This document shows positions 3,827 to 46,018 of a stretch of 64,000 bases of DNA, in pieces. The stretch comes from a virus. Taxonomy: Duplodnaviria > Heunggongvirae > Uroviricota > Caudoviricetes. A program made the translations under genes and the position numbers. The notes under the pieces were generated by a model that saw only the letters and a list, made by a program, of their open reading frames with translations, did not search any database and was not told the DNA's origin. Every line of letters begins with the position of its first letter. Position 1 is the stretch's first letter. Where the stretch lies: the IMG/VR virus record IMGVR_UViG_3300033233_000005, one strand, 5' to 3'.

Positions 3827-4408
3827 ATGCCTACCCACACCCACTATCTCGACCGGGTCTGGACCGGCCCCAAACACTGGTACTACGTACGCATGGACGG
3901 TAACTGGACCAGGATTCAGCCAGTCAAAGTAAATTTCCATGACTCCTTTGAAGAATCTTACCGGTACGTACGGGAACGAATTGAGAACCTGTCCTGCTGG
4001 ATGACCACACACCGGCCCGGCATGTTAGACCTCCCTTTCAGGAACTGGCCTCTATACCAGAAGATGCTAGAACTGGGAGTAACTGTGAAGATTACTGATC
4101 TACTGTACTGGACTCATGCTGGATCGTACTGTTCTGAACTTAAACTTATCTCCCTGAGAGATCCTAAACTCAGTACATGGATGCACGAAATAGGGCATGC
4201 GGCAGAAGATAAACTGAGACTAAAGGCAGACGAGGTAGTGGCGGAAACAGCAGGGTGGGTAACGCGAAAGATGCTGGGCCTGAACTGTGACGAGTATAAG
4301 TCGGCCAGGTATATAAGGAATTATCTGGGTACTTGGACAAGCCGGTATAAGAAGATGTCTGGAGCCAAGAGAAGCGTGAAGCTAGTCGTACAGGAGTTAC
4401 TGTCATGA
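3827..4408 (+). CDS. putative zincin-like metallopeptidase (HEIGH motif)
   Basis: WMHEIGHAAED HExxH motif; ATGA-coupled to the downstream array. Confidence 0.5.
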   Translation: MPTHTHYLDRVWTGPKHWYYVRMDGNWTRIQPVKVNFHDSFEESYRYVRERIENLSCWMTTHRPGMLDLPFRNWPLYQKMLELGVTVKITDLLYWTHAGSYCSELKLISLRDPKLSTWMHEIGHAAEDKLRLKADEVVAETAGWVTRKMLGLNCDEYKSARYIRNYLGTWTSRYKKMSGAKRSVKLVVQELLS

Positions 4409-4680
4409 CAATAAAGTGGTATTGCATGACGCTTAATAGAGGTTCTATCCGTTTTGAGATAGAAGGCAGATTATATAATTGGTATCATGATATTGATAAT
4501 TCAGATACGACTACACCAATAGTAATTACATTCTGGAGGGACACAGTAGACATTAACGTCTTGTTTCCATATAATGCCTCACAACATACGCTGAATCCGG
4601 TTCAGTATAGGGTGATGAAGTTTATAAACGAGAATCCTGAAATTATCTTTGATCCCCTTTGGGACGGAATTATACCATGA
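4405..4680 (+). CDS. DPLW-tail family protein (tandem array member 1)
   Basis: MTIKWY...NENPEIIFDPLWDGIIP; ATGA overlap upstream. Confidence 0.7.
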   Translation: MTIKWYCMTLNRGSIRFEIEGRLYNWYHDIDNSDTTTPIVITFWRDTVDINVLFPYNASQHTLNPVQYRVMKFINENPEIIFDPLWDGIIP

Positions 4681-4988
4681 AGGAATGCGGCAAGGAGATC
4701 ATGAAACTGACATGGCTAGCGCACCCACTTGCTATAGGTAAGTACTGGGTTATGGTCAAAGTTAACGATCAGATTATCATGGTCTCGATGACGATGGCAG
4801 AACGGGTACGACTAACAAAGCGTCGGGAGGAGGAGATAGGATATGTTGTATACCACATCGATGAACTTATCAGAGAATTGGCAAATAATCACGATTCTGA
4901 AAATGTTCAATATAATAAGGCCCTCAAGTTTCTTAATAATCACCCGGAGTACCTGTTTGACCCCCTTTGGAATGGAATTATACCATGA
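4677..4988 (+). CDS. DPLW-tail family protein
   Basis: MKECGKEIMKLTWLAH...LNNHPEYLFDPLWNGIIP; ATGA overlap. Confidence 0.7.
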   Translation: MKECGKEIMKLTWLAHPLAIGKYWVMVKVNDQIIMVSMTMAERVRLTKRREEEIGYVVYHIDELIRELANNHDSENVQYNKALKFLNNHPEYLFDPLWNGIIP

Positions 4989-5308
4989 AGATCACTTGGT
5001 ATCTGATATCAGACCTTGGGACGGCGATGATCCTATTCAAGGTAGACAAAATAGACATATGGTTTACTTATCATTATGTGTACCATACTGAAATGAAACG
5101 CCAGGTAGTAAAGATACTTATGCTGAAAAATCAAAATGGTTGGGTACAGAGTCCGGTAAGTGAATACTCATATAGACTTGCTCATGCTCAGGTGACGCCT
5201 AGGAACCAACCTGTTGGTAATGCTGCTATTATCAAGAAGATAGAGAAGTTTGTTAAAAATAATACAACCATAATATTTGATCCCCTTTGGGACGGAATTA
5301 TACCATGA
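4985..5308 (+). CDS. DPLW-tail family protein
   Basis: MKITWYLI...IIFDPLWDGIIP; ATGA overlap. Confidence 0.7.
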   Translation: MKITWYLISDLGTAMILFKVDKIDIWFTYHYVYHTEMKRQVVKILMLKNQNGWVQSPVSEYSYRLAHAQVTPRNQPVGNAAIIKKIEKFVKNNTTIIFDPLWDGIIP

Positions 5309-5589
5309 AGCACAACCTTGAATGGTACTACTTTATGTCAGGTGTCGATTATGTTTACTCGGTATTTAAGTATAAGGGATTGGTACACGACTGGGTATAT
5401 GACAACAAGGGTCATAAGGTAAACGTACAACTGGGATGCCATTGGGGAGAACATGAAAATAAAGACTTGATACCATTGGGTGCCGAGATGATGGAACGGA
5501 TCAAACCCGATGACATAAGGGTAATAAAATTTCTAGATGAGAATCCAGGCATCTGGAACGATCCGTTATGGGACAGGATAGTACCATGA
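5305..5589 (+). CDS. DPLW-tail family protein
   Basis: ...FLDENPGIWNDPLWDRIVP; ATGA overlap. Confidence 0.7.
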   Translation: MKHNLEWYYFMSGVDYVYSVFKYKGLVHDWVYDNKGHKVNVQLGCHWGEHENKDLIPLGAEMMERIKPDDIRVIKFLDENPGIWNDPLWDRIVP

Positions 5590-5852
5590 AGCTGGAATGG
5601 CTGAGAGATAAGATCACCGGCATAGTGTTTTACAGGGTAAACGGTCTGATCTACCATTGGGTCTTACGTGAAGGCAAGGTTAAACTCGGTAAGCCTGGAT
5701 TCCTACTCAGCCCACAAAGCATGATCATCGCCGCCGATCGTTTGGAACCGTTAATAGATTATTATGGCTTGGATGAATACCGACTGCCGGTGGTGTTGTT
5801 TCTAGATAAGAATCCTGAACTCGTCTTTGATCCCTTTGGGATGGAACTATAA
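5586..5852 (+). CDS. DPLW-tail family protein, C-terminal motif disrupted by a 1-nt deletion in a C-run
   Basis: MKLEWLRD...LDKNPELVFDPFGMEL*; tccctttggg versus tcccctttggg in paralogs. Confidence 0.55.
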   Translation: MKLEWLRDKITGIVFYRVNGLIYHWVLREGKVKLGKPGFLLSPQSMIIAADRLEPLIDYYGLDEYRLPVVLFLDKNPELVFDPFGMEL

Positions 5853-5853
5853 C

Positions 5854-6123
5854 ATGAGGACCTGGTATGTTCGGTATACCAAGGGGTACAGAGAAGGAAT
5901 ACTTGAATCCTTATATTTACAATCTGGAACCAAATGGTTTTCCATCAGGCACAATCTGGCTGGAGGCACGAGCCTGAGTAATTCGTTAATCGTAAATATC
6001 GAACTGATGGTCAAGGTAATAAGCAAGGATCGGATATATCATAAGCATCAGGTAGCCATGGACTTTATGGAAGCCAACCCAGACATTGAATTTGACCCAC
6101 TCTGGGACAGGAGGATACTGTGA
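5854..6123 (+). CDS. DPLW-tail family protein
   Basis: MRTWYVRY...MEANPDIEFDPLWDRRIL. Confidence 0.65.
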   Translation: MRTWYVRYTKGYREGILESLYLQSGTKWFSIRHNLAGGTSLSNSLIVNIELMVKVISKDRIYHKHQVAMDFMEANPDIEFDPLWDRRIL

Positions 6124-6380
6124 AAATCTCCTGGTACATCGGCCACGGGGCTTACTGGGCCAAGGTGAACGACCAGTGGTACCAGATTTACATACTCGGG
6201 CCGTACATGGGTGGTGAATTGATGGTTACCAGAACTCTCTGGAAGGAATTGGATGCTCCTGTCGGTGTGAAACCGGTTGATCTAAAACGTACCTCGTGGA
6301 TTGAAAACAATATGATGGATCACTTCAATTACAACCCCGGCTATCTGTTTGATCCGTTGTGGAATGGGAGGATAATGTGA
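6120..6380 (+). CDS. DPLW-tail family protein
   Basis: GTGA overlap; KISWYIG...NYNPGYLFDPLWNGRIM. Confidence 0.65.
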   Translation: MKISWYIGHGAYWAKVNDQWYQIYILGPYMGGELMVTRTLWKELDAPVGVKPVDLKRTSWIENNMMDHFNYNPGYLFDPLWNGRIM

Positions 6381-6682
6381 GCAAAGCTACCTGGTGGTAC
6401 GATTTCACTGACGATGGAAGGTATGTGGTAGCATGCTTTGAAGTTGAGGGTAAATACTTCTCTTGGAATGCTGAAGGCAAGGTATTAGAATCTCATACAG
6501 CAGATCATAGCGGTTATACCGAATTCGATGAAACCCACTGTAAGCTGGTGTTTAAACTGCTTGAATATAGGTTTCCTAACTCACAAGGCTTTAGTTACGC
6601 CTTTGCTATGACTATGTTTAAACTGATCAACGCCAATCCTCAGATTGTGTTTGATCCTCTATGGGATAGAAAGATTATATGA
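6377..6682 (+). CDS. DPLW-tail family protein
   Basis: GTGA overlap; ...INANPQIVFDPLWDRKII. Confidence 0.6.
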   Translation: MSKATWWYDFTDDGRYVVACFEVEGKYFSWNAEGKVLESHTADHSGYTEFDETHCKLVFKLLEYRFPNSQGFSYAFAMTMFKLINANPQIVFDPLWDRKII

Positions 6683-6996
6683 AGGTTAGATGGTTTAGAA
6701 TGCCGATCCCGTTGGCTGGTGATACTTATCTGGAAGTTAACGGAAGAGAATTTGATGTAGTGGTTGAGGACATAATCCTGCCCTATCCACATGCATCACA
6801 TAAACTTGCTAAACTAGATAGGGCCGCCGTCAAACTGACTCCGGTAATAATAGTGCATCCAGCCAATAAGCAATACCTTAATACCAGGGATTTTAGGCGC
6901 ATGGATTATACATGGCGGCGTTGTATCCTCTACCTGAGCAACAATCCCGGCCTGATATTCGATCCCCTGTGGGATAAGGAGGTACCGCTAACATGA
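6679..6996 (+). CDS. DPLW-tail family protein
   Basis: ATGA overlap; MKVRWFRM...SNNPGLIFDPLWDKEVPLT. Confidence 0.65.
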   Translation: MKVRWFRMPIPLAGDTYLEVNGREFDVVVEDIILPYPHASHKLAKLDRAAVKLTPVIIVHPANKQYLNTRDFRRMDYTWRRCILYLSNNPGLIFDPLWDKEVPLT

Positions 6997-7139
6997 CCGA
7001 ATGGCGTCTGATCGCGTGGGCGTACGACCTGATCCGGCATCGGGTTCAGTTTCACTACTGGCCGGGCAACGGCCTGCGATATTACATCGTGCCGACGGCC
7101 GCCCGCGAGGCCCTGTTGTGGTTGGCATCCAGAACATGA
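6993..7139 (+). CDS. small high-GC ORF inserted in the array
   Basis: ATGA-coupled 48 aa ORF MTEWRLIAWAYDLIRH...; about 62% GC. Confidence 0.3.
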   Translation: MTEWRLIAWAYDLIRHRVQFHYWPGNGLRYYIVPTAAREALLWLASRT

Positions 7140-7444
7140 TGCTAGATAGCTGGGCAGTAGACCTCAACACATCGATGTTTAATTATAAGGGTAAGTTATA
7201 TTCTGCCCTATTAGTAACGCCTAGTGGACCACCTAGCGCCATCTTGATCAGAGAGGAGAGAGGATATATAGATCAAAGGCCGATTGTCAAAGGCGTTAGA
7301 CATTTGATTATTGACAAAGTTCTGGGCCTAGCCAAGGACAGCGGTTTACTAGACGACCCGCTGGCCTGGGATAATATCGGCAGTAATAAGCACATGTGGG
7401 TGAATACCGCTGGCCATTTGGTTCAACTAACGGACAGAACATGA
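7136..7444 (+). CDS. DPLW-tail family protein (DPLAW variant)
   Basis: MMLDSW...LLDDPLAWDNIGSNKH. Confidence 0.55.
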   Translation: MMLDSWAVDLNTSMFNYKGKLYSALLVTPSGPPSAILIREERGYIDQRPIVKGVRHLIIDKVLGLAKDSGLLDDPLAWDNIGSNKHMWVNTAGHLVQLTDRT

Positions 7445-7713
7445 ATAAGTGGTTCGTTGACAAGAACACCATCTATGGACAGCGAGAACTGTACATGCTG
7501 GGAATCGACGGCAACCTGTACATGGTGATTTCAGCAACGATCCTAGAGGGAGCATTGCTTAGGAAGATGCACGATGGGTTAGGCAATCACGATGGTCTGT
7601 TTCCTTTGTCTGACGCACATCAGTTGACCAAGCAGCAACTGGATATGTACGCCTTTATGAATGCTAATCCAAACATTGTCTATGACCCGCTCTGGGATGG
7701 CTGGTCGGCATGA
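7441..7713 (+). CDS. DPLW-tail family protein
   Basis: ATGA; MNKWFVDK...MNANPNIVYDPLWDGWSA. Confidence 0.65.
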   Translation: MNKWFVDKNTIYGQRELYMLGIDGNLYMVISATILEGALLRKMHDGLGNHDGLFPLSDAHQLTKQQLDMYAFMNANPNIVYDPLWDGWSA

Positions 7714-8006
7714 TTAAGATAAAGTTCTTGGTTGGTGGTCGGCACGGGGCGTTCTATCCGTATGCTATTGTCGGCAAGCGCACATACTTTATCGACACCA
7801 GGTGGTATAGCTTTAAACTGGTAGAGGTAGACTCAAATAATAATGAGGCATTTACCACCAGGCAGCTGACCAAAGTCTTAAAAGATAACATCGGTCTGAT
7901 CAATGACCCCCTGGCCTGGAAGGAAAAGAAGATTGGTAGTACGACCGAAAGGACACTTAAAATCGGCAAGTCACTCAACAAAATCAAGAAAGGAGATTAC
8001 ACCTGA
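7710..8006 (+). CDS. DPLW-tail family protein (DPLAW variant)
   Basis: ATGA; MIKIKFL...IGLINDPLAWKEKKIG. Confidence 0.6.
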   Translation: MIKIKFLVGGRHGAFYPYAIVGKRTYFIDTRWYSFKLVEVDSNNNEAFTTRQLTKVLKDNIGLINDPLAWKEKKIGSTTERTLKIGKSLNKIKKGDYT

Positions 8007-8094
8007 TCACCCTCAAGCGTCTGGTGTTCTTCCTGCTGATATTTATTGATGACGCGATTATCGTAGCCCTGGCCCTATGGAGGAAATTTCACGG

Positions 8095-8388
8095 ATGAAA
8101 CGTACCTGGCTGGTGGCCGAAGGTATCCACGAGGGACACTTACAGTTGTTCATGACGGTCGAGGACGAGATGTTTCAACACTGGTTCAAGGTCAGCTATC
8201 AGGTTATCGGATTTGACCACAGGCCGCGCTTGCACGAGTACCATTATGCCCTCAATCTAGAATTCCGTGAGATCGATCCCAACGGAAACCTCTCTATGTT
8301 AGACGCACCTCAGATTGCAGTAATCAGATTTGTAGAATCACATCCTGGCATTGAATTTGATCCCCTCTGGGATAGGATTGCTATATGA
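8095..8388 (+). CDS. DPLW-tail family protein
   Basis: MKRTWLVAEG...ESHPGIEFDPLWDRIAI; upstream ATG at 8077 also possible. Confidence 0.6.
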   Translation: MKRTWLVAEGIHEGHLQLFMTVEDEMFQHWFKVSYQVIGFDHRPRLHEYHYALNLEFREIDPNGNLSMLDAPQIAVIRFVESHPGIEFDPLWDRIAI

Positions 8389-8696
8389 AAATTATTTGGC
8401 GCATGCGTCCATTGCAATATTCTATCACGTTTAAACTGGGTCGGCAGTGGTATGAAGTAGAAGCCACCGATACCCTGTGGAGTTTGACTGGTGGACATAA
8501 GCCGACCGGGATTTTGATTCGCAAGATGCGTAAGCCATACACCCATACTATCGAGCCTAGCCCCATTCACCCTTTGCGTGTCATTATGGAGAAACATCAC
8601 AGCATCGTTAATGACCCGCTGGCCTGGAGTGAACGGTCGTGTCTTATGTTCTTGAAGATATTAAAGAACGACGTGAAGGTAATACAGGCCGGATGA
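8385..8696 (+). CDS. DPLW-tail family protein (DPLAW variant)
   Basis: ATGA; MKIIWRMR...HHSIVNDPLAWSERS. Confidence 0.6.
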   Translation: MKIIWRMRPLQYSITFKLGRQWYEVEATDTLWSLTGGHKPTGILIRKMRKPYTHTIEPSPIHPLRVIMEKHHSIVNDPLAWSERSCLMFLKILKNDVKVIQAG

Positions 8697-8992
8697 AAAT
8701 TACCTGGTTTAGTGGCGATACAGCTCCAAACGGGCGTATCAAAGACGGATTGTGGGTCTACTTCATGGTAGAGGGGGTAGACACCCTCTATACATGGCAG
8801 GGACACAATGATAGCTTTATAAAGATACAGCGTGTGCCCAGTTATATGGAATCCGGCATAGGGCTGACCCAGATATCATCAAACGATGTGAGAATACAGC
8901 CGCTGCAAAGGGACGTCATCAAATTCTTAACAGCACACACAGAACTAATATTTGATCCGTTGTGGAACGGAAACACAGAGGAGGTTAAATGA
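8693..8992 (+). CDS. DPLW-tail family protein
   Basis: ATGA; MKITWFSG...TAHTELIFDPLWNGNTEEVK. Confidence 0.65.
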   Translation: MKITWFSGDTAPNGRIKDGLWVYFMVEGVDTLYTWQGHNDSFIKIQRVPSYMESGIGLTQISSNDVRIQPLQRDVIKFLTAHTELIFDPLWNGNTEEVK

Positions 8993-10334: not shown

Positions 10335-10606
10335 TCGGGCGCACCCTGCTTCGCACATTGTTTACGCCGCGATGCCAATTTGCCGGTACGACACCTGACC
10401 TGTTTGAGAATCACCTTCGATACATGCGGTCGGTCAAAAGCCGTCATGGAGGTCTGGTATTCAGGATTCTACCCAATATCTATGTGGTATCCGGCCACCG
10501 TCCGGATGGCATGCTCGCCATAGCAATTAGTCACCCGGTCAAGAGCATGGTAGGATGGATTCCTGGATACGGCACGTTTAGGTGGTTTGCCTGGAGTCCT
10601 CGATGA
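10331..10606 (+). CDS. hypothetical protein
   Basis: ATGA-coupled. Confidence 0.45.
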   Translation: MIGRTLLRTLFTPRCQFAGTTPDLFENHLRYMRSVKSRHGGLVFRILPNIYVVSGHRPDGMLAIAISHPVKSMVGWIPGYGTFRWFAWSPR

Positions 10607-10848
10607 TCCTGGTCTACGCGTCGCTACTAATCATCACGGTAACGTCCTTCGTAGGTTATATGCACGACTGTGTTACCCACTGTGTACGACGCCCCAATAC
10701 CGGCATGGATGGTTGGTGTGATACAATCGGTCCGTTCCATTTGAGGGGATATCGTGCCAACGGTAAGGGAGACGTAGTTTGGATAATTAGGTGCAAAGAC
10801 AAGATCATCTGGTCTACAATCGTCAATCTACCAATCCAGGAGGTATGA
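10603..10848 (+). CDS. hypothetical membrane/Cys-containing protein
   Basis: ATGA-coupled. Confidence 0.45.
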   Translation: MILVYASLLIITVTSFVGYMHDCVTHCVRRPNTGMDGWCDTIGPFHLRGYRANGKGDVVWIIRCKDKIIWSTIVNLPIQEV

Positions 10849-11162
10849 TGGGAGACGAAGAAATCAGGTTCTACACTTGCGTCGACGGACATGCCTTCGG
10901 ATTTAACGTTGGTGGAGTGGATTTTGGCTGTAGCCCAATGGATGATGAATTCACTGCACACAGAGTTAGCAGTATGCCAATCACAAAACGGTTGAATGAC
11001 AATGATGAACTGCCTATCTGGTTTATACAGCAAGGGCATAGCTTCACTACCAAACAGCTATTGGATACGTTGCGTGGGATGCGGAATCTCTTTACCGATC
11101 CCGAATTTGAGAACAAAAACATTCCATTCAGGGTGAATCAGGAGGACGACAATGCGGATTAA
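10846..11162 (+). CDS. hypothetical protein with variant tail LFTDPEF
   Basis: GGAGG RBS; ...RGMRNLFTDPEFENKNIPF. Confidence 0.45.
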
Positions 11163-14322: not shown

Positions 14323-14705
14323 TGATCTTCTGGATGATAGTGATAAGTCTGATTGCATTTACTCTGAATGCGATTGTGGCAATGCGGCATTGGTGGCACA
14401 GAAACACGATGGGCGCTGCGGTTAATACGATCATTGCATTGCTCGCTCTATATGCTGGCGTATGCGGCGTTCTCCCATGGCGCTGCTGGAATTGCCATCA
14501 CATCACGGCCGTTTGGACCTATCATGTCAGTCACAGTGCACCGAACTATATGGGGTGGTGTAGAGTTGGAACGGAACATTGCCTCCGGTGCGGCGCAGAG
14601 GCGCACACTACGACCACGTTGGATCGAGATGTTAATATCACCGTTAGGCTGCAGGATGGTGGTTGCCCGCACACCGTTGCCACGAGACCAGACCATGAAA
14701 TCTGA
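14286..14705 (+). CDS. hypothetical membrane protein, Cys/His/Trp-rich
   Basis: 139 aa ORF. Confidence 0.4.
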   Translation: MHRIRHPQVVDIMIFWMIVISLIAFTLNAIVAMRHWWHRNTMGAAVNTIIALLALYAGVCGVLPWRCWNCHHITAVWTYHVSHSAPNYMGWCRVGTEHCLRCGAEAHTTTTLDRDVNITVRLQDGGCPHTVATRPDHEI

Positions 14706-15102
14706 CTTTAAGGACATACGTGACCGAATCGCAGAAGAACCTACGTGGTTCGATGCGATCGGTACACCCCGATACGGTCCATTTGATCCTGAACTCTGTC
14801 CGGACATCTATGCCAACGAGGTGCTGCTGGTAGAGATCGGATGCCAGGCCTGTAAGAAACAGTTTATGGTGGAGATGCATACTGATCGCTGGCTCCACAG
14901 CAGCCCGGCCCTCAGTGGTATGATTAAGGAGGGCAATTTGGGATACATACACTACGGTGACCCGCCATATCACAATTGCGTCGGTGACACTATGAACTGC
15001 CTGGACATCAAGGTCATAGAATTCTGGAGTAAGGACACCAGCACCCTTGACTGGATACGGGTGCCTGAACTGGAAATCAATCTACCAGACAAGGAGGTCT
15101 GA
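14695..15102 (+). CDS. hypothetical Cys-containing protein
   Basis: ATGA-coupled internal start MKSDFKDIRD... Confidence 0.45.
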   Translation: MKSDFKDIRDRIAEEPTWFDAIGTPRYGPFDPELCPDIYANEVLLVEIGCQACKKQFMVEMHTDRWLHSSPALSGMIKEGNLGYIHYGDPPYHNCVGDTMNCLDIKVIEFWSKDTSTLDWIRVPELEINLPDKEV

Positions 15103-15531: not shown

Positions 15532-16002
15532 ATGATCAAGCCATGGGATTGGGTCAGGTGGAAGGCGTATGTTTTGTCCTGGAGGTGGATTAATCGCATC
15601 CCCTGGATCTCATGGAAGAAGCGTAGCAAGCACCCGGCAACTAGTTGGTTGTTGTGGAAGGTATTTAACCTGACCAAACACGATGACTTCTGGGGCCAAG
15701 ACATCATTGTTAAGATTGATCCAACCAAGGTCATGCCGGTTTCCATCTGGATTGTCAAATTGGTGATGCAGGCCAGACAGTGTAGCAGGAATGAAGCTAG
15801 CCGCCTGATCAAACAGGGTAGTGTTCTACTGGATTATGACTGTGATTTGAAAACTGGAAAACTGAGTTGGGCCAAGATCACCGACCCTACCAAATCAGTA
15901 GAGTTAATGTTTGGTTCAGTATTGTGGGTCGGTAAGGATCGACCCTTCAGGGTAAGATACGGCTTTATCGATTTCATGCGGTGGGGATACTGGTATCCAT
16001 GA
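15532..16002 (+). CDS. hypothetical protein
   Basis: ATGA start MIKPWDW within ORF 15415..16002. Confidence 0.4.
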   Translation: MIKPWDWVRWKAYVLSWRWINRIPWISWKKRSKHPATSWLLWKVFNLTKHDDFWGQDIIVKIDPTKVMPVSIWIVKLVMQARQCSRNEASRLIKQGSVLLDYDCDLKTGKLSWAKITDPTKSVELMFGSVLWVGKDRPFRVRYGFIDFMRWGYWYP

Positions 16003-17825
16003 AATATCTAGAAGACGATTTTGAACGGGCTAGAAGGAAGGATAATCTGCCTAATGATGCGGTGGACGCAATCAGGGCGTATGGAATAAAGAATGTTGCA
16101 TCGATATTCCCAGATAAGGATGATATAGAATTGCTGGGATACGTTCCAACCACAACAAGGAGAGACATGACCAAAGAGCAGCTGATTACCAGCATGAAGG
16201 AAGCTCTGAAAGGAGCCAGGGAGAAGTTGGCACAGGTTGAACCCTTGGTAGCACGTCTGAAGTCCCCTCCCCTCAGCAGCGGGATCGTAATCAGTTTGAC
16301 CGAGATCGAATTGCCGATTATCGAATCCACCGCCATCAAGAAAGGGTCCAGGGTCCATCTCCGCACGGATAGTCCTTACGCTGATCAGAGCAGTACCGAT
16401 GGTACGGTGACCGAGACACGGGGAGAGGATGAAGGTCAGGTCGCTACCGTCAAGTGGGATGACGGTGGAAGGGACGGTTATGTGGTCAAGCGGGATCTGG
16501 AACCGGCTGCGGTAAATGGTCCTCCCAAGACCAAAAAGGTCCCTGCGGCTGTGACGGTGATGGACGGGCAGATGGTTATCCTGCGAGCTGACGGTATCAA
16601 GGCGAATCCGGGTGATACGGTGCTGATTCATCGGGAAGCCGGGGTCATCGTGGGTCCCGCTCCGTTCCAGATGACCGGTACGATCGCCAGTGTGATGAAG
16701 GCTGAGGGAGATCACATCGAGATCGCGTGGCAGGGCGGCACGCACACGATCATGCGAGCTGGGGTCGGCGCGGTCGAGGTCGGAGACAAGCTGGTGGTGG
16801 ATAACTCCGGATTCGCCGCCCTGCAGAACTTGGGGCAGGAGGAATCCCATACTCACGAGGATGCGACTGATGTGAGCTGGGACGATATCGGTGGACAGGA
16901 TGAGGCAAAGATGGCGATGCGGGAGGCGGTGGAGTTGAGCCGTACGCATGGTGAGCTGTTTCAGGGGTACAGCAAGCAGCAGACCAAGGGGATCCTGTTG
17001 TACGGTCCACCCGGCTGCGGGAAGACGATGCTGGCCAAGGCTGCGGCTACCGCCAATGCCAAGTTCGCCAAGGACACGGGAGCGAAAGGTGGATTCCTGT
17101 ACGTGAAGGGACCTGAGATCCTGAACCGATACGTGGGTGAGACTGAGGCTGCCATTCAGTCCCTCTATGCCGCAGCTAAGAAACACTTCAACAAGACCGG
17201 ATTCCCGGCGACCATCTGCATCGATGAAGCGGATGCCATCCTGGGAGAGCGGGGTTCGGGCAAGAGTTCTGATATCGAGCGCACGATCGTGCCGATGTTC
17301 CTCGCGGAAATGGACGGTCTGGAGAAGACGGGTGCTCTGACCATTCTCCTCACCAATCGGCCTGACGTGTTGGACCCGGCTGTGACGCGGGACGGACGCA
17401 TTGATCGGAGGGTGCGGGTGAGCCGACCCGATAAGGCGACGTCCAAGCAGATCATGGTACTATACCTTAAGAAGGCTCCCTTGGCAAGTGGGACATCGCT
17501 CGAAGAACTCGCGGCGACGGCTACGGATGCGATCTTTAACGAGCAACTGGTGGTCAACCGGTATCGAGAGATCACGCTGCACTTGGCTCATCTGGTGAAC
17601 GGGGCGACGTTGGCTGGTGTGGTGGAACGCGCCAAGTCTCGGGCCATGCACCGGGATATGGCGGCCAGGGTGAAGAAGGCGAGCGGTATCACGAAGGACG
17701 ATGTGATCGCTGCGGTCAAGGGCATCTACGAGGAGAGCCTGCACATCAACCATCGGGACGCGTTCCTGGAAGTGGCTGAGCGTCTCAATATCATGATGGA
17801 GGGAGTTACTCATGCCGGAACGTGA
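15999..17825 (+). CDS. AAA+ ATPase, Mpa/ARC (proteasome-associated unfoldase)-like
   Basis: Walker A GILLYGPPGCGKTMLAKA, Walker B ICIDEADAILG, second homology region NRPDVLDPAVTRDGRIDRRV; ARC-type insertion FLYVKGPEILNRYVGETE; OB-like N-terminal region. Confidence 0.8.
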   Translation: MKYLEDDFERARRKDNLPNDAVDAIRAYGIKNVASIFPDKDDIELLGYVPTTTRRDMTKEQLITSMKEALKGAREKLAQVEPLVARLKSPPLSSGIVISLTEIELPIIESTAIKKGSRVHLRTDSPYADQSSTDGTVTETRGEDEGQVATVKWDDGGRDGYVVKRDLEPAAVNGPPKTKKVPAAVTVMDGQMVILRADGIKANPGDTVLIHREAGVIVGPAPFQMTGTIASVMKAEGDHIEIAWQGGTHTIMRAGVGAVEVGDKLVVDNSGFAALQNLGQEESHTHEDATDVSWDDIGGQDEAKMAMREAVELSRTHGELFQGYSKQQTKGILLYGPPGCGKTMLAKAAATANAKFAKDTGAKGGFLYVKGPEILNRYVGETEAAIQSLYAAAKKHFNKTGFPATICIDEADAILGERGSGKSSDIERTIVPMFLAEMDGLEKTGALTILLTNRPDVLDPAVTRDGRIDRRVRVSRPDKATSKQIMVLYLKKAPLASGTSLEELAATATDAIFNEQLVVNRYREITLHLAHLVNGATLAGVVERAKSRAMHRDMAARVKKASGITKDDVIAAVKGIYEESLHINHRDAFLEVAERLNIMMEGVTHAGT

Positions 17826-19566: not shown

Positions 19567-19907
19567 GCTGGTCCGTTAGGCTCATGCCAGCCAATGGTGA
19601 AAATCCCGTATCCGTACCCACATTTACGGAAGGCGGGACCTATGCTATAGGTGGGACCAGCGTGGCTGATCTGAATGTAACCTACAATTATAGCAGGGTT
19701 TACAGAACGGTTGGTTTTGAATTTGGAGACATGGATGGGCGGAGGGCTGGTGACCTTATTCCTCAGATGGAGGGAGTGGTGCAGAAACTGGGAACGAAAC
19801 GAGACACCGATTATTGGGCCGCCACACCTGGGAATGCCGGTTATGCCTTAAATATCCTGCTGGGTTGGGCCGAGTTGTATCCAAACGCCAGATTCGAGAT
19901 AAACTGA
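19563..19907 (+). CDS. hypothetical protein
   Basis: GTGA-coupled. Confidence 0.45.
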   Translation: MSWSVRLMPANGENPVSVPTFTEGGTYAIGGTSVADLNVTYNYSRVYRTVGFEFGDMDGRRAGDLIPQMEGVVQKLGTKRDTDYWAATPGNAGYALNILLGWAELYPNARFEIN

Positions 19908-20659
19908 TGATAGATAGTTTCTCTGTCGAACACAGATTTCTGTCCAATTTCTGGCCAGCCAAGGTCAAACTGGATGGAATCGAATATCAGACAGTAGAGC
20001 ACGCCTATCAGGCCGCTAAGACGCTTGACCCCTTCCTGCGCAAGCCCTTCGAATCTATAGAACCGGGGAGGGCTAAACGCCTGGGCAAACGATTAAAGAT
20101 GCGGCCTGATTGGAAACAAGTTAAGATCCCTATTATGAAGGACCTATTATTACAGAAATTCGCTGATCCCGAGCTAAAACAGCTCCTACTGAGCACGGGA
20201 GATGAACTGCTGATAGAGGGTAACACCTGGGGCGACACATTCTGGGGGATATGTAGATCAGAGGGTAGCAATTATCTAGGTCAGATCCTAATGGGCATTC
20301 GTGCTATACTTAAAGAGGGTGATCACAGCATATTTGATAGGATACCGAGTACGCTGGTGTTTGGGTATATCGGCGTGACATTTCCAGCGGTTAGAACAAT
20401 GGACACAATATGGTGGATCTTAGATCAAACAGAGAATCCGGTGGAATTGGCGAGGACTAAACCACCTGCTGATGAATTCCACAGCTTTCATTCGGGCAAT
20501 GCATCACACGGTCAGTATCCTACTTGGGAGCATTGGCTCAAACAGTGGGTATTAGATAATGAGCAACTATTATATGATCCGTTGGCTTGGACCATTAGTA
20601 ATGGTGGAGCAATAACAAATGTCCTAATGATCAACCAGGAGGTTAAACATGCCAAGTAA
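19907..20659 (+). CDS. NADAR (YbiA/DUF1768)-domain protein fused to a DPLAW-tail module
   Basis: TGATGA coupling; MIDSFSVEHRFLSNFW, EHAYQAAK, GNTWGD...ICRSEGSNYLGQILMGIR; C-terminus EQLLYDPLAWTISNGG. Confidence 0.8.
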   Translation: MIDSFSVEHRFLSNFWPAKVKLDGIEYQTVEHAYQAAKTLDPFLRKPFESIEPGRAKRLGKRLKMRPDWKQVKIPIMKDLLLQKFADPELKQLLLSTGDELLIEGNTWGDTFWGICRSEGSNYLGQILMGIRAILKEGDHSIFDRIPSTLVFGYIGVTFPAVRTMDTIWWILDQTENPVELARTKPPADEFHSFHSGNASHGQYPTWEHWLKQWVLDNEQLLYDPLAWTISNGGAITNVLMINQEVKHAK

Positions 20660-21113
20660 GAAGAAAGAACCAGCGGCGGTTGCCGCTGATGCGCCCGTTA
20701 CAGAAGAAAAGAAGGCCGAGCGCCAGCCTGTCAGCAAGGAAGACCTGCAAAAGGCCGAAGCCATCTTTGATCAGATGAGGACCCTGGCCGACACGTTGCC
20801 CAAGGGAGTGGAGTCGATTATCTCAATTGGCCGGTACACGCAGTCCAATGCCAGTGGCTTATATCTGTTAATGATCTCGCACCGGATGCTGGACAACGTG
20901 TTCAATATGAATAAGGACCACGACCAGCACATGGCGATGCTAACCGGATTGCTGGCTTCCGGAGCATTACAGTTGCTTACCCATGATGGCCTGATGGCAT
21001 TGGCCAAGTATTATGGGGCAGATGGTAAGGACATGAAGAATGATAGCAAACAAGCCAAGATAGCACACGTCGAGCGTCTGTTGCGCGGCGATACCGGGTC
21101 GGCTGCGGCCTAG
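20649..21113 (+). CDS. hypothetical protein
   Basis: RBS GGAGG; 154 aa. Confidence 0.5.
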   Translation: MPSKKKEPAAVAADAPVTEEKKAERQPVSKEDLQKAEAIFDQMRTLADTLPKGVESIISIGRYTQSNASGLYLLMISHRMLDNVFNMNKDHDQHMAMLTGLLASGALQLLTHDGLMALAKYYGADGKDMKNDSKQAKIAHVERLLRGDTGSAAA

Positions 21114-21150
21114 TATAAAACTAGCAGCGACAGCTATAAAGCAAAGGAGG
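21110..21150 (+). promoter_or_regulatory. tandem promoter-like elements CTAG-TATAAAA-CTAG and CTATAAAGCAAAGGAGG
   Basis: palindromic stem around TATAAAA; second copy fused to the RBS of gene 21155. Confidence 0.4.
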
Positions 21151-21154
21151 CCGC

Positions 21155-21571
21155 GTGTCACAACAGCAAGCTACTGTCAGTCATATCCAGGCAAACCAAC
21201 AGAGGTTGAGCGATCTAATGTGTAAGGGTGGCAAGATGAAGATCAGACCCACAAATGGCAAATGGTTTGACTGCTATGAGACGTCCGACGATCAAGTGCG
21301 AGTCGGTGAAGCCTGCCCTCTCGGTACCGCTGCCATTGCAGCTGGATTGCCTTCTGCCACTGCCTATAAATTTGAACAAGCCTCTGGTGATGGCGGCGTT
21401 GAAAGGTGGGTAAAGAAACATCTCCCGTCCGTCAATGAAATGGTACAGCATCCAGCAGACAGCGCTGGCAGGAAATTGCGGTCCGTTATGTCTGTGGTTA
21501 TCGACTTGACTGATGAATATGAATGGAGTCGTAAGCGAGTGATCGCTTGGCTGCGTAAGTTGGGTATGTAA
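21155..21571 (+). CDS. hypothetical protein
   Basis: GTG start preceded by TATAAAGCAAAGGAGG. Confidence 0.55.
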   Translation: MSQQQATVSHIQANQQRLSDLMCKGGKMKIRPTNGKWFDCYETSDDQVRVGEACPLGTAAIAAGLPSATAYKFEQASGDGGVERWVKKHLPSVNEMVQHPADSAGRKLRSVMSVVIDLTDEYEWSRKRVIAWLRKLGM

Positions 21572-21824
21572 GTGAAGTGGTGGCTTATCCTCCTGGCCTG
21601 TGTATGTGGCCATCCAGGAGTGGCAGTACTGATTTTCTTCATCATGGATGAGGACTGATGGGAGACAATCTTAAATGGTACCACGCTCCAATATTACTGG
21701 TGGTTGCACGGTGGAGTAAGCTACGAGCATTGTTTTGGCCACTGGCCATAACCTGGATTGTTTGCTCGGTTATAACTTGTGTCTACCTTAAACATCATCT
21801 AATCTTACACTGGAAGTAATCTTG

Positions 21825-21898
21825 GGGGCGGTAGCTCAATTGGTTAGAGCAACCGGCTCATAATCGGTAGGTTGTGGGATCGTTCCCCACCCGCCCCA
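21825..21898 (+). tRNA. tRNA-Met/Ile2 (CAU)
   Basis: GGGGCGG/CCGCCCC acceptor, TAGCTC..GAGC D-arm, anticodon loop CTCATAA; T-loop ATCGTTC. Confidence 0.7.
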
Positions 21899-21905
21899 AG
21901 TCATT

Positions 21906-22625
21906 ATGAAGATACTTATCACTAGTGACACACATGAAGGGATGACTATGCCTGAGATCCTAAATAACTTTTATAAGCAGATGAGCAAAGAGCGTCCCGA
22001 TCTGGTGTTGCATGCAGGTGACTGGGGTACCTGTGACCTACACGATGTTGACATAGCTATGGACATGTACAGACGGCAGTTGCGCAAGGTACAGACCGTA
22101 ACCGTGTTTGGTAATCATGATTACTGGCAGACCGGTGGGTCAATCAATTACAAGAGTGTAGTAGAAATGGGTATAGCATTGCGGGACACAGCAGCAAAAT
22201 ATCATATTGATTACCCGTTCCCACATTCTCATCAACTCCACCCGAATATTAACATCTATGGATTCGATGGCTGGTATGCGCATGATGACCCTCCTACCAA
22301 AGATATCAGATTCATGCCGCGTGATTTTGAGGGTAAACCGATGCATATAGGGATGAGGGGTAGGGCTCAACGGGAATTTAACTACATGTTGACCAATCCC
22401 ACGCCGTTCGCCGTTGGTAAGCCTAAGTTACTACTTACACACTTCCCTATGGCTGACAATCCGTTCTCTGCGCCAGCCCGATGGATGGACTTCGTAGCAC
22501 CAGAATTTGATTACCTAGTGGTTGGACATTCACACAGACCAGCCGATTATACAGTAGGAAAATGTCGAGTGATAAACCCAGGAAGTGATATAAACAACCC
22601 ACGCTACGTCGTACTGGAGGTCTGA
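21906..22625 (+). CDS. calcineurin-like metallophosphoesterase
   Basis: ITSDTHEG, HAGDWG, FGNHDY motifs. Confidence 0.8.
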   Translation: MKILITSDTHEGMTMPEILNNFYKQMSKERPDLVLHAGDWGTCDLHDVDIAMDMYRRQLRKVQTVTVFGNHDYWQTGGSINYKSVVEMGIALRDTAAKYHIDYPFPHSHQLHPNINIYGFDGWYAHDDPPTKDIRFMPRDFEGKPMHIGMRGRAQREFNYMLTNPTPFAVGKPKLLLTHFPMADNPFSAPARWMDFVAPEFDYLVVGHSHRPADYTVGKCRVINPGSDINNPRYVVLEV

Positions 22626-24256
22626 TGTCCAATCTTGGTAAGGCCGCGCCTATGCTCATGCCCAATGTGCCAGTAGCTACAAAGGAAGATGATGTGGTGC
22701 AGATCACTGTCCAGAATTCCGATTTGGAGAAACTGTACAAAGGTCTCAATAAAAAGAAGATCGCGCACATCAAAAAGTGCATGAATGGGAACAATAGGAT
22801 CATGTCGGTAATCAGGGTGAACATGGCCGAAGACTGGTTCATCAAAGCAATGTTCAAGTTTGACCTGGGCAGGCGTGACTACTTCGTCATCCAGGAAACC
22901 TTGAACGGCGATCCAGATATCCATAAGATGGTGATTACCGATCCGGCTCAATTGGAATATGCGATCAACAAGCTGGGTAAGAATGGCCAGTTGAATGCCG
23001 AGATCTTCCTCAACGGGCGCTGGTACCCGATCCATCTAGATGCCGAATACGAGACTGGCATGTTCGGTACCTATACCACTCTGTCTACCCCGTTGCACAT
23101 CGTTAATATCGACTATACGCGGCGGTGGTACGTTACCGACCGGCACTTTAACGATAGTAATGGCAGAAGCGCGTCCTATACGGTAGAGAAGATTCTGGAT
23201 ATGGTCGGTTTGCGTATGTTCCAGACTAATATTGAGGAATATCGGGCGCGGTGTCTCAAAGCCATCGACAACTACGGTCCGGCTGGTACGGTTAAAGAAT
23301 GTGTAGGTCCGGCCTTAAATCTGGGTGGGTTCATGTTCTGGACCATGCTAGATTCAATTGAGTTGGGAGATAAGACCAGTCCGCGCCGGGTGATCCTGGA
23401 GCGGCAACTGGAGACGAAACACGAGATTGACGATGATCCGGAGGATGTTATCCCCAACCGCCCAATGGAACAGAATCTCCCGTTTATCAGGGTATTTGCC
23501 ATCGATCATAAGGCGTATATGTATGTCGATGTGGACGACCTGCGGCCCGGCACTTTCGATGTTAAGGCAGTTGAGCGTCTGGTCCTGCCAGATGAGAAGG
23601 CGAAATTACTCAAGAGCCTGTTTACGGCTGATACCTCTTCCCTATTTGGTGACATGTTGAAAGGAAAGCACGGCGGGATGATCATTCTAGCGAACGGTCG
23701 GCCAGGGACCGGTAAGACCCTGACGGCTGAGGTCTTTGCCGAATACACCAAGCGCCCACTGTATGCCGTGGCCGTGGGTGAGTTGGGGCTGGATCTCGAA
23801 TCCATCGAACGAAATCTGCAGCGTATCTTCCGACGGGTAACAAAGTGGAATGCGGTTCTCCTTCTAGACGAGGCAGACATCTTCCTGGCCAAACGGGACG
23901 AGAACATCGAGCGGAGCGCCATCGTAGGGGTGTTCCTGCGGTTGCTCGATTACTATAAGGGGCTATTGTTTCTGACCACCAATCGGGTTGAGACGATCGA
24001 CGAGGCATTCAGGTCCCGTATCACGATTAAGTTGACGTACCCCGATCTGGAGAAGGAAGCCCGTTTGAAAATCTGGACTATGATGCTTAAGCAGGCAGAA
24101 GTACCTGTGAATGAATCATTGGGTCCTGTGGCCGATATGCCGATGAATGGACGCCAGATCAGAAATATGGTGCGGCTCATCAAGGTCCTTCACAAGGGGA
24201 AACCCGTTGTACCGGTGAAGGAGATCCTTGAGGTCTGCAAGTTCTCCAACGATTAA
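22625..24256 (+). CDS. AAA+ ATPase (C-terminal AAA domain, unknown N-terminal about 350 aa)
   Basis: Walker A NGRPGTGKT, Walker B LLLDEADIFL, TTNRVETIDEAFRSR. Confidence 0.8.
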   Translation: MSNLGKAAPMLMPNVPVATKEDDVVQITVQNSDLEKLYKGLNKKKIAHIKKCMNGNNRIMSVIRVNMAEDWFIKAMFKFDLGRRDYFVIQETLNGDPDIHKMVITDPAQLEYAINKLGKNGQLNAEIFLNGRWYPIHLDAEYETGMFGTYTTLSTPLHIVNIDYTRRWYVTDRHFNDSNGRSASYTVEKILDMVGLRMFQTNIEEYRARCLKAIDNYGPAGTVKECVGPALNLGGFMFWTMLDSIELGDKTSPRRVILERQLETKHEIDDDPEDVIPNRPMEQNLPFIRVFAIDHKAYMYVDVDDLRPGTFDVKAVERLVLPDEKAKLLKSLFTADTSSLFGDMLKGKHGGMIILANGRPGTGKTLTAEVFAEYTKRPLYAVAVGELGLDLESIERNLQRIFRRVTKWNAVLLLDEADIFLAKRDENIERSAIVGVFLRLLDYYKGLLFLTTNRVETIDEAFRSRITIKLTYPDLEKEARLKIWTMMLKQAEVPVNESLGPVADMPMNGRQIRNMVRLIKVLHKGKPVVPVKEILEVCKFSND

Positions 24257-31510: not shown

Positions 31511-32521
31511 ATGTGGTATTTCCTCGCGGTGGTTGTCGCACTCGGCATCACTGCTACCAAGTGGCGTAAGTTCTACGACGATAAGAAGGAAGCGGTTGAC
31601 GTTCTGGCTGGTGTCCGAATCCTGGGAGTTAATCTACTGATATTCGGTTCCATCGCTACGGTGTTGTCTGCCGTGGTGGTTATCAGTGCCGGTCACCGTG
31701 GAGTCGTATTCGATAGTGTCAAGGGTGTCCGTCCAGTGGCCCTGAATGAGGGATTGAACTTCGTTACCCCATTCATCCAGACCTGTTATGAAATGGACGT
31801 CCGTACTCAGAAAGCTGAATTTGAGTCTTCTGCGGCATCCAAAGACTTGCAGGAAGTGTCTACCAAGATGACGGTCAACTTCTCTCCCGTCCCTGCTGCC
31901 ATTCCGCAGTTGTTTCAGACGGTGGGCATGGATTATGTTGAGAAGATTGTGCACCCTGCCGTGCAGGAAGCACTCAAGGCCGCCACTGCCAAGTTTACGG
32001 CTGAGGAACTGATCACCAAGCGGGAACTGGTCAAACAGAATTTCCACGACCACCTGACCGCCGTGCTCAGCAGGGCTAATGTCACCCTGACTGAAACGTA
32101 TATTACCGACTTCCAGTTTAGTAAGCCATTTGCTGCGGCCATTGAAGCCAAGCAGGTTGCTGCACAGGAAGTCATGACGGCACAGAATAAGTTGTTGCAG
32201 GTCAAGGTCGAGGCCGAGCAGAAGATTGCACAGTATAGGGCGGAAGCCGAGGGTCTGCGACTCAAGCAGGCTGCTATTACTCCGTTGATGGTTAGGATGG
32301 AAGCGATTAGACAGTGGAATGGTGTACTGCCCCAGGTCATGATGGGTGGCGGCGGTGGGAGCAGCGGTGGCGGCGGTATCCCTTTCTTGGATATTAGCCA
32401 TCTGCCAACCTGGGAGTCCAAGCCTAGAGCGAAGAATGCTGCAGAAATGGCTCAGCCTAACCAGCCAGCAACACAGGCCAAGGCCCCTGCAGAAGATAAG
32501 AAGGAAGACGACGACAACTAA
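31511..32521 (+). CDS. prohibitin/SPFH (band 7) family protein
   Basis: N-terminal transmembrane helix; GHRGVVFD...FVTPFIQ...EELITKRELV...AKQVAAQE...AEQKIAQYRAEAEG matches the PHB fold; Gly-rich tail GGGGGSSGGGG. Confidence 0.85.
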   Translation: MWYFLAVVVALGITATKWRKFYDDKKEAVDVLAGVRILGVNLLIFGSIATVLSAVVVISAGHRGVVFDSVKGVRPVALNEGLNFVTPFIQTCYEMDVRTQKAEFESSAASKDLQEVSTKMTVNFSPVPAAIPQLFQTVGMDYVEKIVHPAVQEALKAATAKFTAEELITKRELVKQNFHDHLTAVLSRANVTLTETYITDFQFSKPFAAAIEAKQVAAQEVMTAQNKLLQVKVEAEQKIAQYRAEAEGLRLKQAAITPLMVRMEAIRQWNGVLPQVMMGGGGGSSGGGGIPFLDISHLPTWESKPRAKNAAEMAQPNQPATQAKAPAEDKKEDDDN

Positions 32522-45846: not shown

Positions 45847-45917
45847 GGGGCCATCGTCCAGTGGGAGGATGACGCCATGGCATGGCGTAGACGGGAGTTC
45901 AAATCTCCCTGGCTCCA
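45847..45917 (+). tRNA. tRNA-Ala (GGC)
   Basis: G3-U70 pair, anticodon loop ATGGCAT, T-arm GGGAG-TTCAAAT-CTCCC. Confidence 0.65.
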
Positions 45918-45931
45918 CAGTTTTATAAAAT

Positions 45932-46002
45932 GGGGGCGTGGTGAAGTAGGATCACAGATCCCTTGCAAGGATCAGTCGCGGGCGCACTTCCCGCCGTCTC
46001 CA
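45932..46002 (+). tRNA. tRNA-Ala (UGC)
   Basis: G3-U70, anticodon loop CTTGCAA; unusual T-loop CGCACTT. Confidence 0.55.
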
Positions 46003-46018
46003 GGTATAATTTAAAAAC

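Follow-up and report, generated by a model that had tools for sequence, protein, structure and literature searches.

A phage-encoded Mpa/ARC-type AAA+ ATPase in a conserved gene trio with small Pup-like proteins and a DUF1360 membrane protein

In the recognition of Pup by the ATPase Mpa, a helix of Pup binds the Mpa coiled coil and the Pup N-terminus is threaded into the pore. This recognition is regarded as part of the proteasome pathway of actinobacteria and a few other phyla, dependent on the ligase chemistry of Dop and PafA. Corynebacteria, which lack the 20S proteasome, still use the Mpa counterpart ARC together with pupylation, such that pupylated proteins are unfolded without being degraded; these organisms keep a genuine Pup ending in GGQ/E, as well as Dop and PafA. 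Here, we describe an Mpa/ARC-type AAA+ ATPase encoded in a 64,000-nucleotide stretch of viral DNA (Caudoviricetes; IMG/VR record IMGVR_UViG_3300033233_000005; the whole stretch is hereafter called the window), where its gene is followed directly by genes for two small proteins, one of them Pup-like, and for a membrane protein of the Pfam family DUF1360. We place at about even the chances that this ATPase is an Mpa/ARC-type unfoldase acting, independently of a proteasome and of pupylation enzymes, as the motor of a self-contained three-part module with a Pup-like handle at the membrane. A preliminary description of this DNA had singled out the ATPase and, in its reading of the neighborhood, missed the Pup-like proteins with their terminal CxC and the DUF1360 gene directly downstream. 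A literature search found no published description of an ATPase/small-protein/DUF1360 module.

The ATPase open reading frame (ORF) is genuine, running on the + strand from an ATG at 15999 to a TGA at 17823-17825; an alternative GTG start at 15981 would extend the product to 614 residues. The protein is a true relative of Mpa/ARC, the bacterial proteasome ATPase, and the motifs on which this affinity had been proposed (LLYGPPGCGKT, FLYVKGPEILNRYVGETE, and MFLAEMDG...NRPDVLDPAVTRDGRIDRRVRVSRPD) are all found in its translation. Its top NCBIfam model is TIGR03689 pup_AAA (281.6 bits, E = 1.2e-83), followed at lower scores by CDC48 (176 bits), PAN (167 bits), and FtsH (139 bits); the pup_AAA alignment covers residues 65-580 of the ATPase and positions 19-482 of the 512-position profile, N-domains included. 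The same model ranks first for all 41 aligned family members, with a best E-value of 1.9e-106. Pfam detects the AAA core only (PF00004; 104.8 bits against a gathering score of 21.2, E = 6e-30), plus a weak Prot_ATP_ID_OB_C match at residues 188-218, and among PDB sequences compared over the same query region, the single-domain score of Mpa (186 bits, query 260-506) is above that of VAT D2 (147 bits).

The AlphaFold2 model (41 homologs; mean predicted local distance difference test score, pLDDT, of 82) contains an N-terminal helix, two beta-rich blocks, and then the AAA module (Table 1), in keeping with the tandem beta-rich, OB-like segments described previously. Foldseek comparison with the PDB returned M. 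tuberculosis Mpa chains as all of the top 30 matches (~460-470 columns), with 26S Rpt subunits next; the alignment with Mpa extends across both beta-rich domains. A single-sequence phmmer search of the PDB with the N-domain gave nothing significant (Mpa 3M9B at E = 1), which leaves the full-length profile and the fold comparison as the basis of the OB homology. At 27, the spacing between Walker A (GKT) and GPE in the ATPase matches that of Patescibacteria-type members (27-30) and is close to that of Mpa (30-31) but unlike that of Cdc48 (18), from which it follows that the inserted segment reported in the AAA module is real and common to Mpa. With the best profile, the 30 best structural matches, and this insertion all pointing to ARC/Mpa, a generic phage AAA ATPase with no ARC affinity is not what the data describe.

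Motor motifs comprise Walker A GPPGCGKT (336-343), the pore loop RYVG, Walker B IDEAD, sensor-1 TNR, and the arginine fingers RDGRIDR, and the catalytic columns are conserved across the 41-sequence family alignment (A1). Given this conservation of Walker A and B, pore loop, sensor-1, and arginine fingers, the ATPase is expected to be an active translocase. The coiled-coil helix is present in every cassette-bearing ATPase, and its "QLTSPP"-type end is conserved across the family; the N-domains differ among family members, some having a single OB domain and others two.

Table 1. Coordinates of the ATPase, its parts, and the adjoining coupled genes in the window
Feature	Position	Strand	Description and evidence
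Upstream gene, 175 aa	15475-16002	+	Weak S4-like match; ATGA overlap with ATPase start
ARC/Mpa-like AAA+ ATPase, 608 aa	15999-17825	+	ORF, Pfam AAA, NCBIfam pup_AAA, Foldseek, conserved catalytic columns
ATPase N-terminal coiled-coil helix, residues 59-88	16173-16262	+	Ends ...LKSPP; counterpart of the Pup-binding coiled coil of Mpa; AlphaFold2
ATPase beta-rich OB-like domains, residues 93-169 and 178-288	16275-16862	+	AlphaFold2, Foldseek span
ATPase AAA module and C-terminal helical region	16866-17798	+	~9-residue insertion past the Walker A helix, as in Mpa
Small protein 1, 93 aa	17812-18093	+	Basic N-terminus MPEREQKNK..., central GETIDLADRVLAHVE, long Cys-rich tail CGCDGGCGCSKCTPTSCCAKPGC
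Small protein 2, Pup-like, 67 aa	18086-18289	+	N-terminus MSEQEQVRR..GG, helix motif VDLDDVMAEIDKVLDLAQ, C-terminus KGCGCFG
DUF1360 protein, 108 aa	18286-18612	+	Three predicted transmembrane (TM) segments; CHYCFSHW at cytoplasmic start of TM2; Pfam PF07098

The ATPase gene is the first of a conserved, translationally coupled gene trio. The order ATPase, small protein of ~60 amino acids, DUF1360 was first seen in three long cellular contigs; the window has the same order, but with two small genes between the ATPase and DUF1360. All junctions between consecutive module genes in the window are overlaps of 4-14 nt: the ATG of small protein 1 overlaps the ATPase stop by 14 nt, and small protein 2 and DUF1360 overlap as ATGA. 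In about 30 loci, the gene next after the ATPase encodes a member of the small-protein family, and all three small proteins recovered by an independent profile search sit between an AAA gene and a gene of ~110 amino acids. Besides the window, 5 Patescibacteria-type loci and ~27 viral loci have DUF1360 just downstream; counted over non-redundant cassette loci, it is found in this position in 31/31, as against 0/74 Mpa loci. Co-occurrence of DUF1360 with a CxC ORF, each sought within 1 kb, was counted among the non-redundant viral loci scoring at least 250 bits. Both are present in 25 of these 54 loci, DUF1360 only in 4, the CxC ORF only in 1, and neither in 24 (Fisher p = 3e-10), and three of the four "DUF1360 only" loci are regular-expression misses of the CxC ORF. 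None of the 74 Mpa-tier loci contains DUF1360 or a small CxC ORF. All-against-all clustering of ORFs of at least 70 amino acids from the 31 non-redundant cassette loci identified the ATPase and DUF1360 alone as conserved, with no protease and no ligase.

The small ORFs have in common an N-terminus that is first basic and then rich in Gly, a [VI]DDVL.E[IV]D.AL motif in the middle, and a C-terminal CxC, CC, or CxxC; one of these endings is found in all ~35 small proteins seen. The genuine Pup/UBact-type proteins from Mpa loci (n = 33) end in GGQ/GGE, with one TGE. A profile hidden Markov model (HMM) built from four small proteins already detected genuine Pup genes at the expected mpa-dop-pup position of actinobacterial loci, and an HMM of 27 CxC proteins, when run on a set of 17,797 ORFs, ranked ~25 genuine Pups right after its own family (best E = 1.2e-5). 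Alignment of 28 CxC proteins with 23 genuine Pups by hhalign gave a probability of 93.4, E = 2.5e-7, and a score of 37.7 over 17 columns, which correspond to the helix of Pup that binds the Mpa coiled coil; 60 column shuffles scored 7.9 +/- 1.7 (maximum 13.6), and the reversed alignment scored 20.0. These profile comparisons show the small proteins to be similar to the Pup motif for Mpa coiled-coil binding.

The similarity is confined to part of Pup. NCBIfam returned only two weak matches for small protein 2, TIGR03687 (Pup; E = 0.16) and an Msp porin model (E = 0.15), and the Pup model as sole match for P0137 (E = 0.046); the TIGR03687 scores of 12.0 and 13.7 bits compare with a cut-off of 41.45, and the matches align to profile positions 2-17 only, the helix part. 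A Pfam scan of the small proteins gave no Pup match at E <= 10, and they lack the C-terminal half of Pup together with its GGQ/E. A single-sequence search of large databases recovered one match, the query itself, and a profile search 8 matches in 5.8 billion proteins and 15 in 1.84 billion representatives, numbers kept low by the shortness and divergence of these proteins. Small protein 1 is a called gene in public assemblies and a possible divergent paralog of small protein 2. Its long Cys-rich tail takes the place of a terminal CxC, as does that of a protein in a second locus (L117, 7350-7646; CCGILPCKGRTPACYGCAICMDCITGAGCGH) in which DUF1360 was not detectable.

The downstream membrane protein matches PF07098 at 29.2 bits against a gathering score of 21 (profile positions 5-97 of 102); tblastn of DUF1360 against GenBank phages gave no match. 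In each of the 31 cassette copies, the second hydrophobic segment begins with C-x-[YW]-C (consensus CPYCxSHW), in which the Cys pair is invariant. The loop preceding this CxxC contains a mean of 4.9 Lys+Arg, compared with 0.6 and 0.16 on the other side. By the positive-inside rule, these charges place the CxxC at the cytoplasmic face of the membrane, the side of the small protein and the ATPase. The consensus CPYC is also the glutaredoxin active-site tetrad, which would make a thiol-disulfide link an alternative to a zinc clasp between the small protein and DUF1360.

A glutaredoxin-like CPYC at the membrane interface could also mean that the small Cys-terminated proteins are substrates of a membrane modification by DUF1360 (S-acylation/lipidation, or disulfide/thioether formation), with the ATPase unfolding, presenting, or recycling them and a modified peptide or lipoprotein-like anchor, instead of a targeting handle, as the product. 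The C-terminal CxC/CC(C) of the small proteins, which we take to resemble eukaryotic lipidation sites, would fit such a role, as would the long Cys-rich tails of small protein 1 and of the L117 protein. However, DUF1360 comprises ~110 amino acids with a Pfam DUF match only and no recognizable catalytic domain, and modification would leave the Pup-like helix and N-terminus of the small proteins unexplained; we consider this explanation improbable.

In several respects, the ATPase departs from an orthodox Mpa. Its 281.6 bits fall under the TIGR03689 equivalog cut-off of 504.75, and its C-terminus (...EGVTHAGT) is without the GQYL/HbYX docking motif for the 20S core. No GQYL-like end occurs among the family C-termini listed; GQYL, GHYL, GTYL, or similar C-termini occur in 37 of 74 Mpa-tier proteins from GTDB genomes. 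With the Dop/PafA and PrcA/B sequences of L061 (actinobacterial; mpa-dop-pup-prcB-prcA-pafA) and L013 (Nitrospirae) as seeds, searches found none of these genes in the 64-kb window, in 7 Patescibacteria-type loci, or in 80 IMG/VR loci. Among the 76 Mpa-tier loci fetched, Dop/PafA were present in 63 and PrcA/B in 41-43. Both the docking motif and neighboring proteasome or ligase genes are absent from this ATPase and its locus, and the proteasomal role implied by the earlier assignment is not upheld.

The nearest relatives in sequence and fold are nonetheless the proteasomal ATPases Mpa and Rpt, and the DNA inspected covered one section of the phage genome and limited flanking sequence in its relatives. 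The ATPase might accordingly be a true activator of a 20S-like or other self-compartmentalized peptidase, whose gene could belong to the host or to another section of the phage genome, with the small proteins as degradation tags or adaptors. This seems to us quite unlikely given the missing C-terminal motif in the ATPase and in the family C-termini listed, the absence of 20S and Dop/PafA from the window and 87 related loci when most genuine mpa genes are flanked by them, and the lack of any protease conserved across the 31 cassette neighborhoods. Moreover, Patescibacteria, the cellular carriers of the cassette, are not known for 20S proteasomes.

In the three-part module that we favor, the ATPase would act as a hexamer consisting of a coiled coil, an OB ring, and one AAA ring, with no 20S partner, and the second part would be one or two small, probably disordered Pup-like proteins. 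The central acidic helix of the small protein (..DDV[LM].E[IV]D.[AV]L..) may bind the ATPase coiled coil in the fashion of Pup and Mpa; the basic/Gly-rich N-terminus would be fed into the ATPase pore, and the terminal CxC stands where Pup has its GGQ/GGE ligation site. The small-protein cysteines may couple to the DUF1360 CxxC through a shared metal site of the zinc-clasp type or a mixed disulfide, and this coupling would present the Pup-like handle at the membrane. CD4/CD8 and Lck set a precedent for a zinc clasp between two proteins, formed by a CxC and a CxxC (PMC7355011). Once presented, the handle could recruit the unfoldase to the membrane, or could deliver DUF1360 or its bound partner for ATP-driven pulling and unfolding with no proteolysis. 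The sequence data show the Mpa-like identity, the intact motor motifs, the lack of a docking motif and of nearby proteasome or ligase genes, the coupled gene trio, the resemblance to the Pup motif, and the cytoplasmic CxxC, whereas the binding to the coiled coil, the link through cysteines, the biological substrate, and the benefit to the phage are inferred. That the system is a ligase-free, proteasome-independent cousin of pupylation, in which two terminal cysteines rather than an isopeptide bond hold the handle to a membrane CxxC, metal or redox state could act as a switch, and the motor is recruited to the membrane or extracts and unfolds proteins there in both Patescibacteria and large phages, is put forward tentatively, as a possibility with chances well short of even.

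The closest relatives of the ATPase, 40-47% identical, are found in viral contigs and in metagenome-assembled genomes (MAGs) of Patescibacteria, the latter representing Kerfeldbacteria, Staskawiczbacteria, Paceibacterota, and Saccharibacteria. Among these ultra-small bacteria, genomes with the cassette include GCA_040961635.1 and GCA_016199145.1. The Mpa proteins of Actinobacteria, Nitrospirae, and Verrucomicrobia cluster apart, with 33-40% identity to the ATPase over OB2 and AAA only. A neighbor-joining tree of the AAA module, the rooting of which is unreliable, likewise separates the Mpa tier and nests the Patescibacteria sequences among viral ones; given its long-branch root and the lack of a PAN/Rpt outgroup, no sister relationship to Mpa is claimed. 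On this sequence evidence, the ATPase appears to belong to a clade distinct from Mpa/ARC and common to large phages and Patescibacteria. The proposed acquisition from a high-GC, actinobacterial host finds no support in these relationships, the nearest relatives being those of phages and Patescibacteria. IMG/VR contains >500 stretches matching the ATPase, on contigs of up to 607 kb. GenBank phages gave protein-level matches to the AAA core only and no full-length counterpart, and BFVD (reference viral proteomes) gave no full-length structural counterpart. A phage copy is thus unusual, as had been stated, among cultured and reference phages, but not within IMG/VR. The Brevundimonas phage proteins annotated "proteasome-associated ATPase" are no counterparts, as their N-terminus differs and they have no cassette.

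Several points weigh against the three-part module. The Pup similarity rests on a motif of ~17 columns, with single small proteins falling under every curated Pup threshold, and small protein 1 is marginal in the family HMM (E = 0.023 with Z = 1). The search for proteasome and ligase genes extended over 64 kb of the phage and 4-10 kb on each side in its relatives, and such genes could lie farther away in those genomes or in the hosts. The neighbor-joining tree is not reliably rootable, a root on the second AAA of the window being a long-branch artifact, and some of the very large "viral" contigs of IMG/VR could be misclassified Patescibacteria genomes. Finally, the 24 of 54 viral loci with neither DUF1360 nor a CxC ORF within 1 kb suggest that the ATPase can function or be partnered otherwise and is not obligatorily tied to these proteins.

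This last point, that about half of the viral homologs lack the partners, would be expected of a general-purpose phage AAA+ chaperone or remodeler serving replication, assembly, or host takeover, with the Mpa-like N-domain as a substrate-binding ring and the small ORFs and DUF1360 mechanistically unlinked to it. The variation between one and two OB domains agrees with such a role, as does the setting of viral cassettes among phage replication-type or early-type genes (e.g., primase/helicase, DnaB, HNH). However, the trio is kept together in 31 otherwise unrelated neighborhoods of phages and bacteria, its genes are translationally coupled, and the small protein bears the motif that Pup uses for binding to the coiled coil of Mpa. 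We regard a general chaperone as unlikely and retain the membrane-directed module as the preferred reading.

The composition of the ATPase gene is distinctive within the window. Its GC content is 57.0% (maximum over 300-bp windows, 61.7%) against a mean of 48.0% for the 64 kb, and it is the highest-GC stretch of its length; the GC content at third codon positions (GC3) is 67.5%, and raised GC3 is also seen in several other longer genes of the window. The small genes coupled to the ATPase have a GC content of about 50-54%. Over its flanks, the ATPase gene shows a mean GC excess of 1.5 points in related viral loci and 6 points in Patescibacteria-type loci. The high-GC island of the preliminary description is therefore sound as a local excess of ~9 points but overstated at ~65%.

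The window resembles a section of a large phage genome, as nearly all genes lie on one strand, 38 tRNA genes are present, ORFans are numerous, and a number of genes are typical of phages (those for a MoxR-like ATPase and its DUF2201 VWA/metallopeptidase partner, a DNA ligase, RNase HII, and an SPFH protein). The tRNA genes cover nearly all amino acids (45847-57994 and 21825-21898), and the majority are grouped over 12 kb with small ORFs between them, like those of very large phages. The MoxR-like AAA_5 ATPase (36226-37338) lies 1.7 kb upstream of the DUF2201 VWA/putative metallopeptidase (39066-40361), a pair often encountered in phages; the DUF2201 protein has matches in 389 GenBank phage records. 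A protein identical to the ATPase is present on a 163,875-bp metagenomic contig (ERZ27248239:k141_1314216). No DNA-level similarity was found between the window and GenBank phages, and an exact 35-mer from the locus had no match in IMG/VR. A promoter/terminator scan found no + strand terminator-like site within the five coupled genes and was otherwise uninformative.

Membership of the 175-amino-acid upstream gene in the module is doubtful because, despite its coupling, it is not conserved in other loci. In Patescibacteria-type loci, a fourth conserved gene is upstream-adjacent to the ATPase and encodes a beta-rich protein of ~85-108 amino acids with no family match (L004 and L005, both 7708-8004; L006, 3618-3872; L007, 5444-5770); it is absent from the viral loci. 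The "GGQS" end of this protein in L004 and L005 was considered as a Pup-like terminus and rejected, as it is not conserved in L006 or L007. L004 lies within an island of restriction-modification, Fic, and recombinase genes, and weak PADLOC/NCBIfam matches to IetA/IteA and TRIP13 were obtained, such that a defense or counter-defense AAA+ system of the IetAS/IteA or TRIP13 type might be envisaged. These matches, however, involve the generic AAA core only, at 48-68 bits and far under the pup_AAA score (NCBIfam IteA, 54.8 bits against a cut-off of 510), and the small proteins and DUF1360 have no PADLOC match; a defense role is highly improbable.

Other genes near the module, or near related cassettes, are recorded here. 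Upstream, a protein encoded at 14368-15102 has a Cys-containing C-terminal domain (..PRYGPFDPELCPDIYANEVLLVEIGCQACKKQF..) and a homolog in one other cassette-bearing viral locus (L088, 119-577). Downstream, a run at 19907-24256 comprises a NADAR-domain protein (19907-20659), a metallophosphatase (21906-22625), and a second AAA+ protein (22625-24256; phrog_29662); an extra AAA gene and a metallophosphatase also occur near the cassette in L167. The N-terminus of the second AAA+ is, as reported earlier, unrelated, being a unique 330-residue N-domain without a relative in other loci. This protein was rejected as a module member, as its N-domain occurs in no other locus and it does not co-occur with the ATPase elsewhere. 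An expanded family of 13 paralogs (~90-105 amino acids) lies mostly in a tandem array at 4405-8992, with a further copy at 50113-50430; its members share an N-terminal MK(I/L)TW(Y/F) and a conserved C-terminal NP.I.FDPLWD(G/R)II(P). The speculation that the ATPase recognizes these tails (FDPLWDGIIP) does not fare well, since the family is found in this phage only and in none of the other ~160 related-ATPase loci.

An SPFH/Band 7 membrane-scaffold protein (phrog_200) is encoded at 31511-32521, and the same PHROG flanks two other cassette-bearing viral loci. Bacterial SPFH proteins regulate the membrane AAA protease FtsH, so that the SPFH protein could conceivably be linked to the membrane-directed module. 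The translation at 42297-42659 reads as a putative type IV pilin-like N-terminus (..GFTLIETMIVITVIG..), and in L005, from Kerfeldbacteria, the gene immediately after the cassette (10479-11009) gives a weak N_methyl (pilin-like) match. Prok-JAB and ThiF/E1-like proteins are components of ubiquitin-like conjugation systems; in one bacterial genome (GCA_040961635.1; L003, 11068-16603), a second AAA ATPase (558 amino acids), a weak Prok-JAB match, and a ThiF/E1-like protein are encoded 1.4-6 kb past the cassette.

If the proposed module is real, the principle of a disordered handle, a coiled-coil receptor, and an AAA+ pore would be re-used with another attachment chemistry and without proteolysis, in a widespread sister system that keeps the motor and the binding helix, swaps the ligation site for cysteines, gains a membrane partner, and loses the proteasome. 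It would offer a concrete hypothesis for the uncharacterized Pfam family DUF1360 and, for the little-explored cell biology of Patescibacteria, a candidate protein-remodeling machine. Large phages, in turn, would be credited with a recurrent auxiliary module.

Among more distant systems, PAN/Rpt1-6, Cdc48/VAT, and FtsH have the AAA core and pore-loop mechanism in common with the ATPase. PAN and Rpt also possess a coiled coil and an OB domain, and Cdc48 and FtsH act on membrane proteins; however, these proteins have a single OB domain (PAN) or different N-domains, the spacing between Walker A and GPE is 18 as compared with 27 in the ATPase, and the profile scores are lower. For the proposed attachment, the zinc clasp between CD4/CD8 (CxCP) and Lck (CxxC) offers the same CxC and CxxC pairing, with one partner membrane-anchored and Zn2+ as the tether (PMC7355011); those proteins are eukaryotic and unrelated, and metal binding in the phage module is suggested by motifs and co-occurrence only.

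Compared with Pup (PF05639, TIGR03687) and the Gram-negative UBact, the small proteins are similar in size (~60-90 amino acids), and they share with Pup a basic Gly-rich N-terminus (M.EQEQ..R..GG), a central acidic amphipathic motif, and an Mpa-like ATPase as a neighbor. Unlike Pup, they have no C-terminal half (..EFV..YVQKGGQ/E) for Dop/PafA binding and lysine ligation and end instead in CxC, CC, or CxxC, and their neighbor is DUF1360, never Dop/PafA. The ATPase itself has its closest counterparts in Mpa (M. tuberculosis) and ARC (Rhodococcus; TIGR03689; PDB 5KWA, 5KZF, 7PX9, 3M9B), with which it shares the coiled coil, tandem OB-like domains, and a single AAA module with its insertion, and pore loop, Walker, and arginine-finger motifs are intact in both. 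It differs from them in its sub-cut-off score, its lack of GQYL, its location outside any dop/pup/prcBA/pafA setting, and its membership in a separate phage/Patescibacteria cluster. A functional parallel is corynebacterial ARC, likewise an Mpa-type unfoldase without a 20S partner and without GQYL, as seen in the Corynebacterium ARC proteins of L020 and L036; the phage module lacks the ligase chemistry and has a membrane protein as its constant partner.

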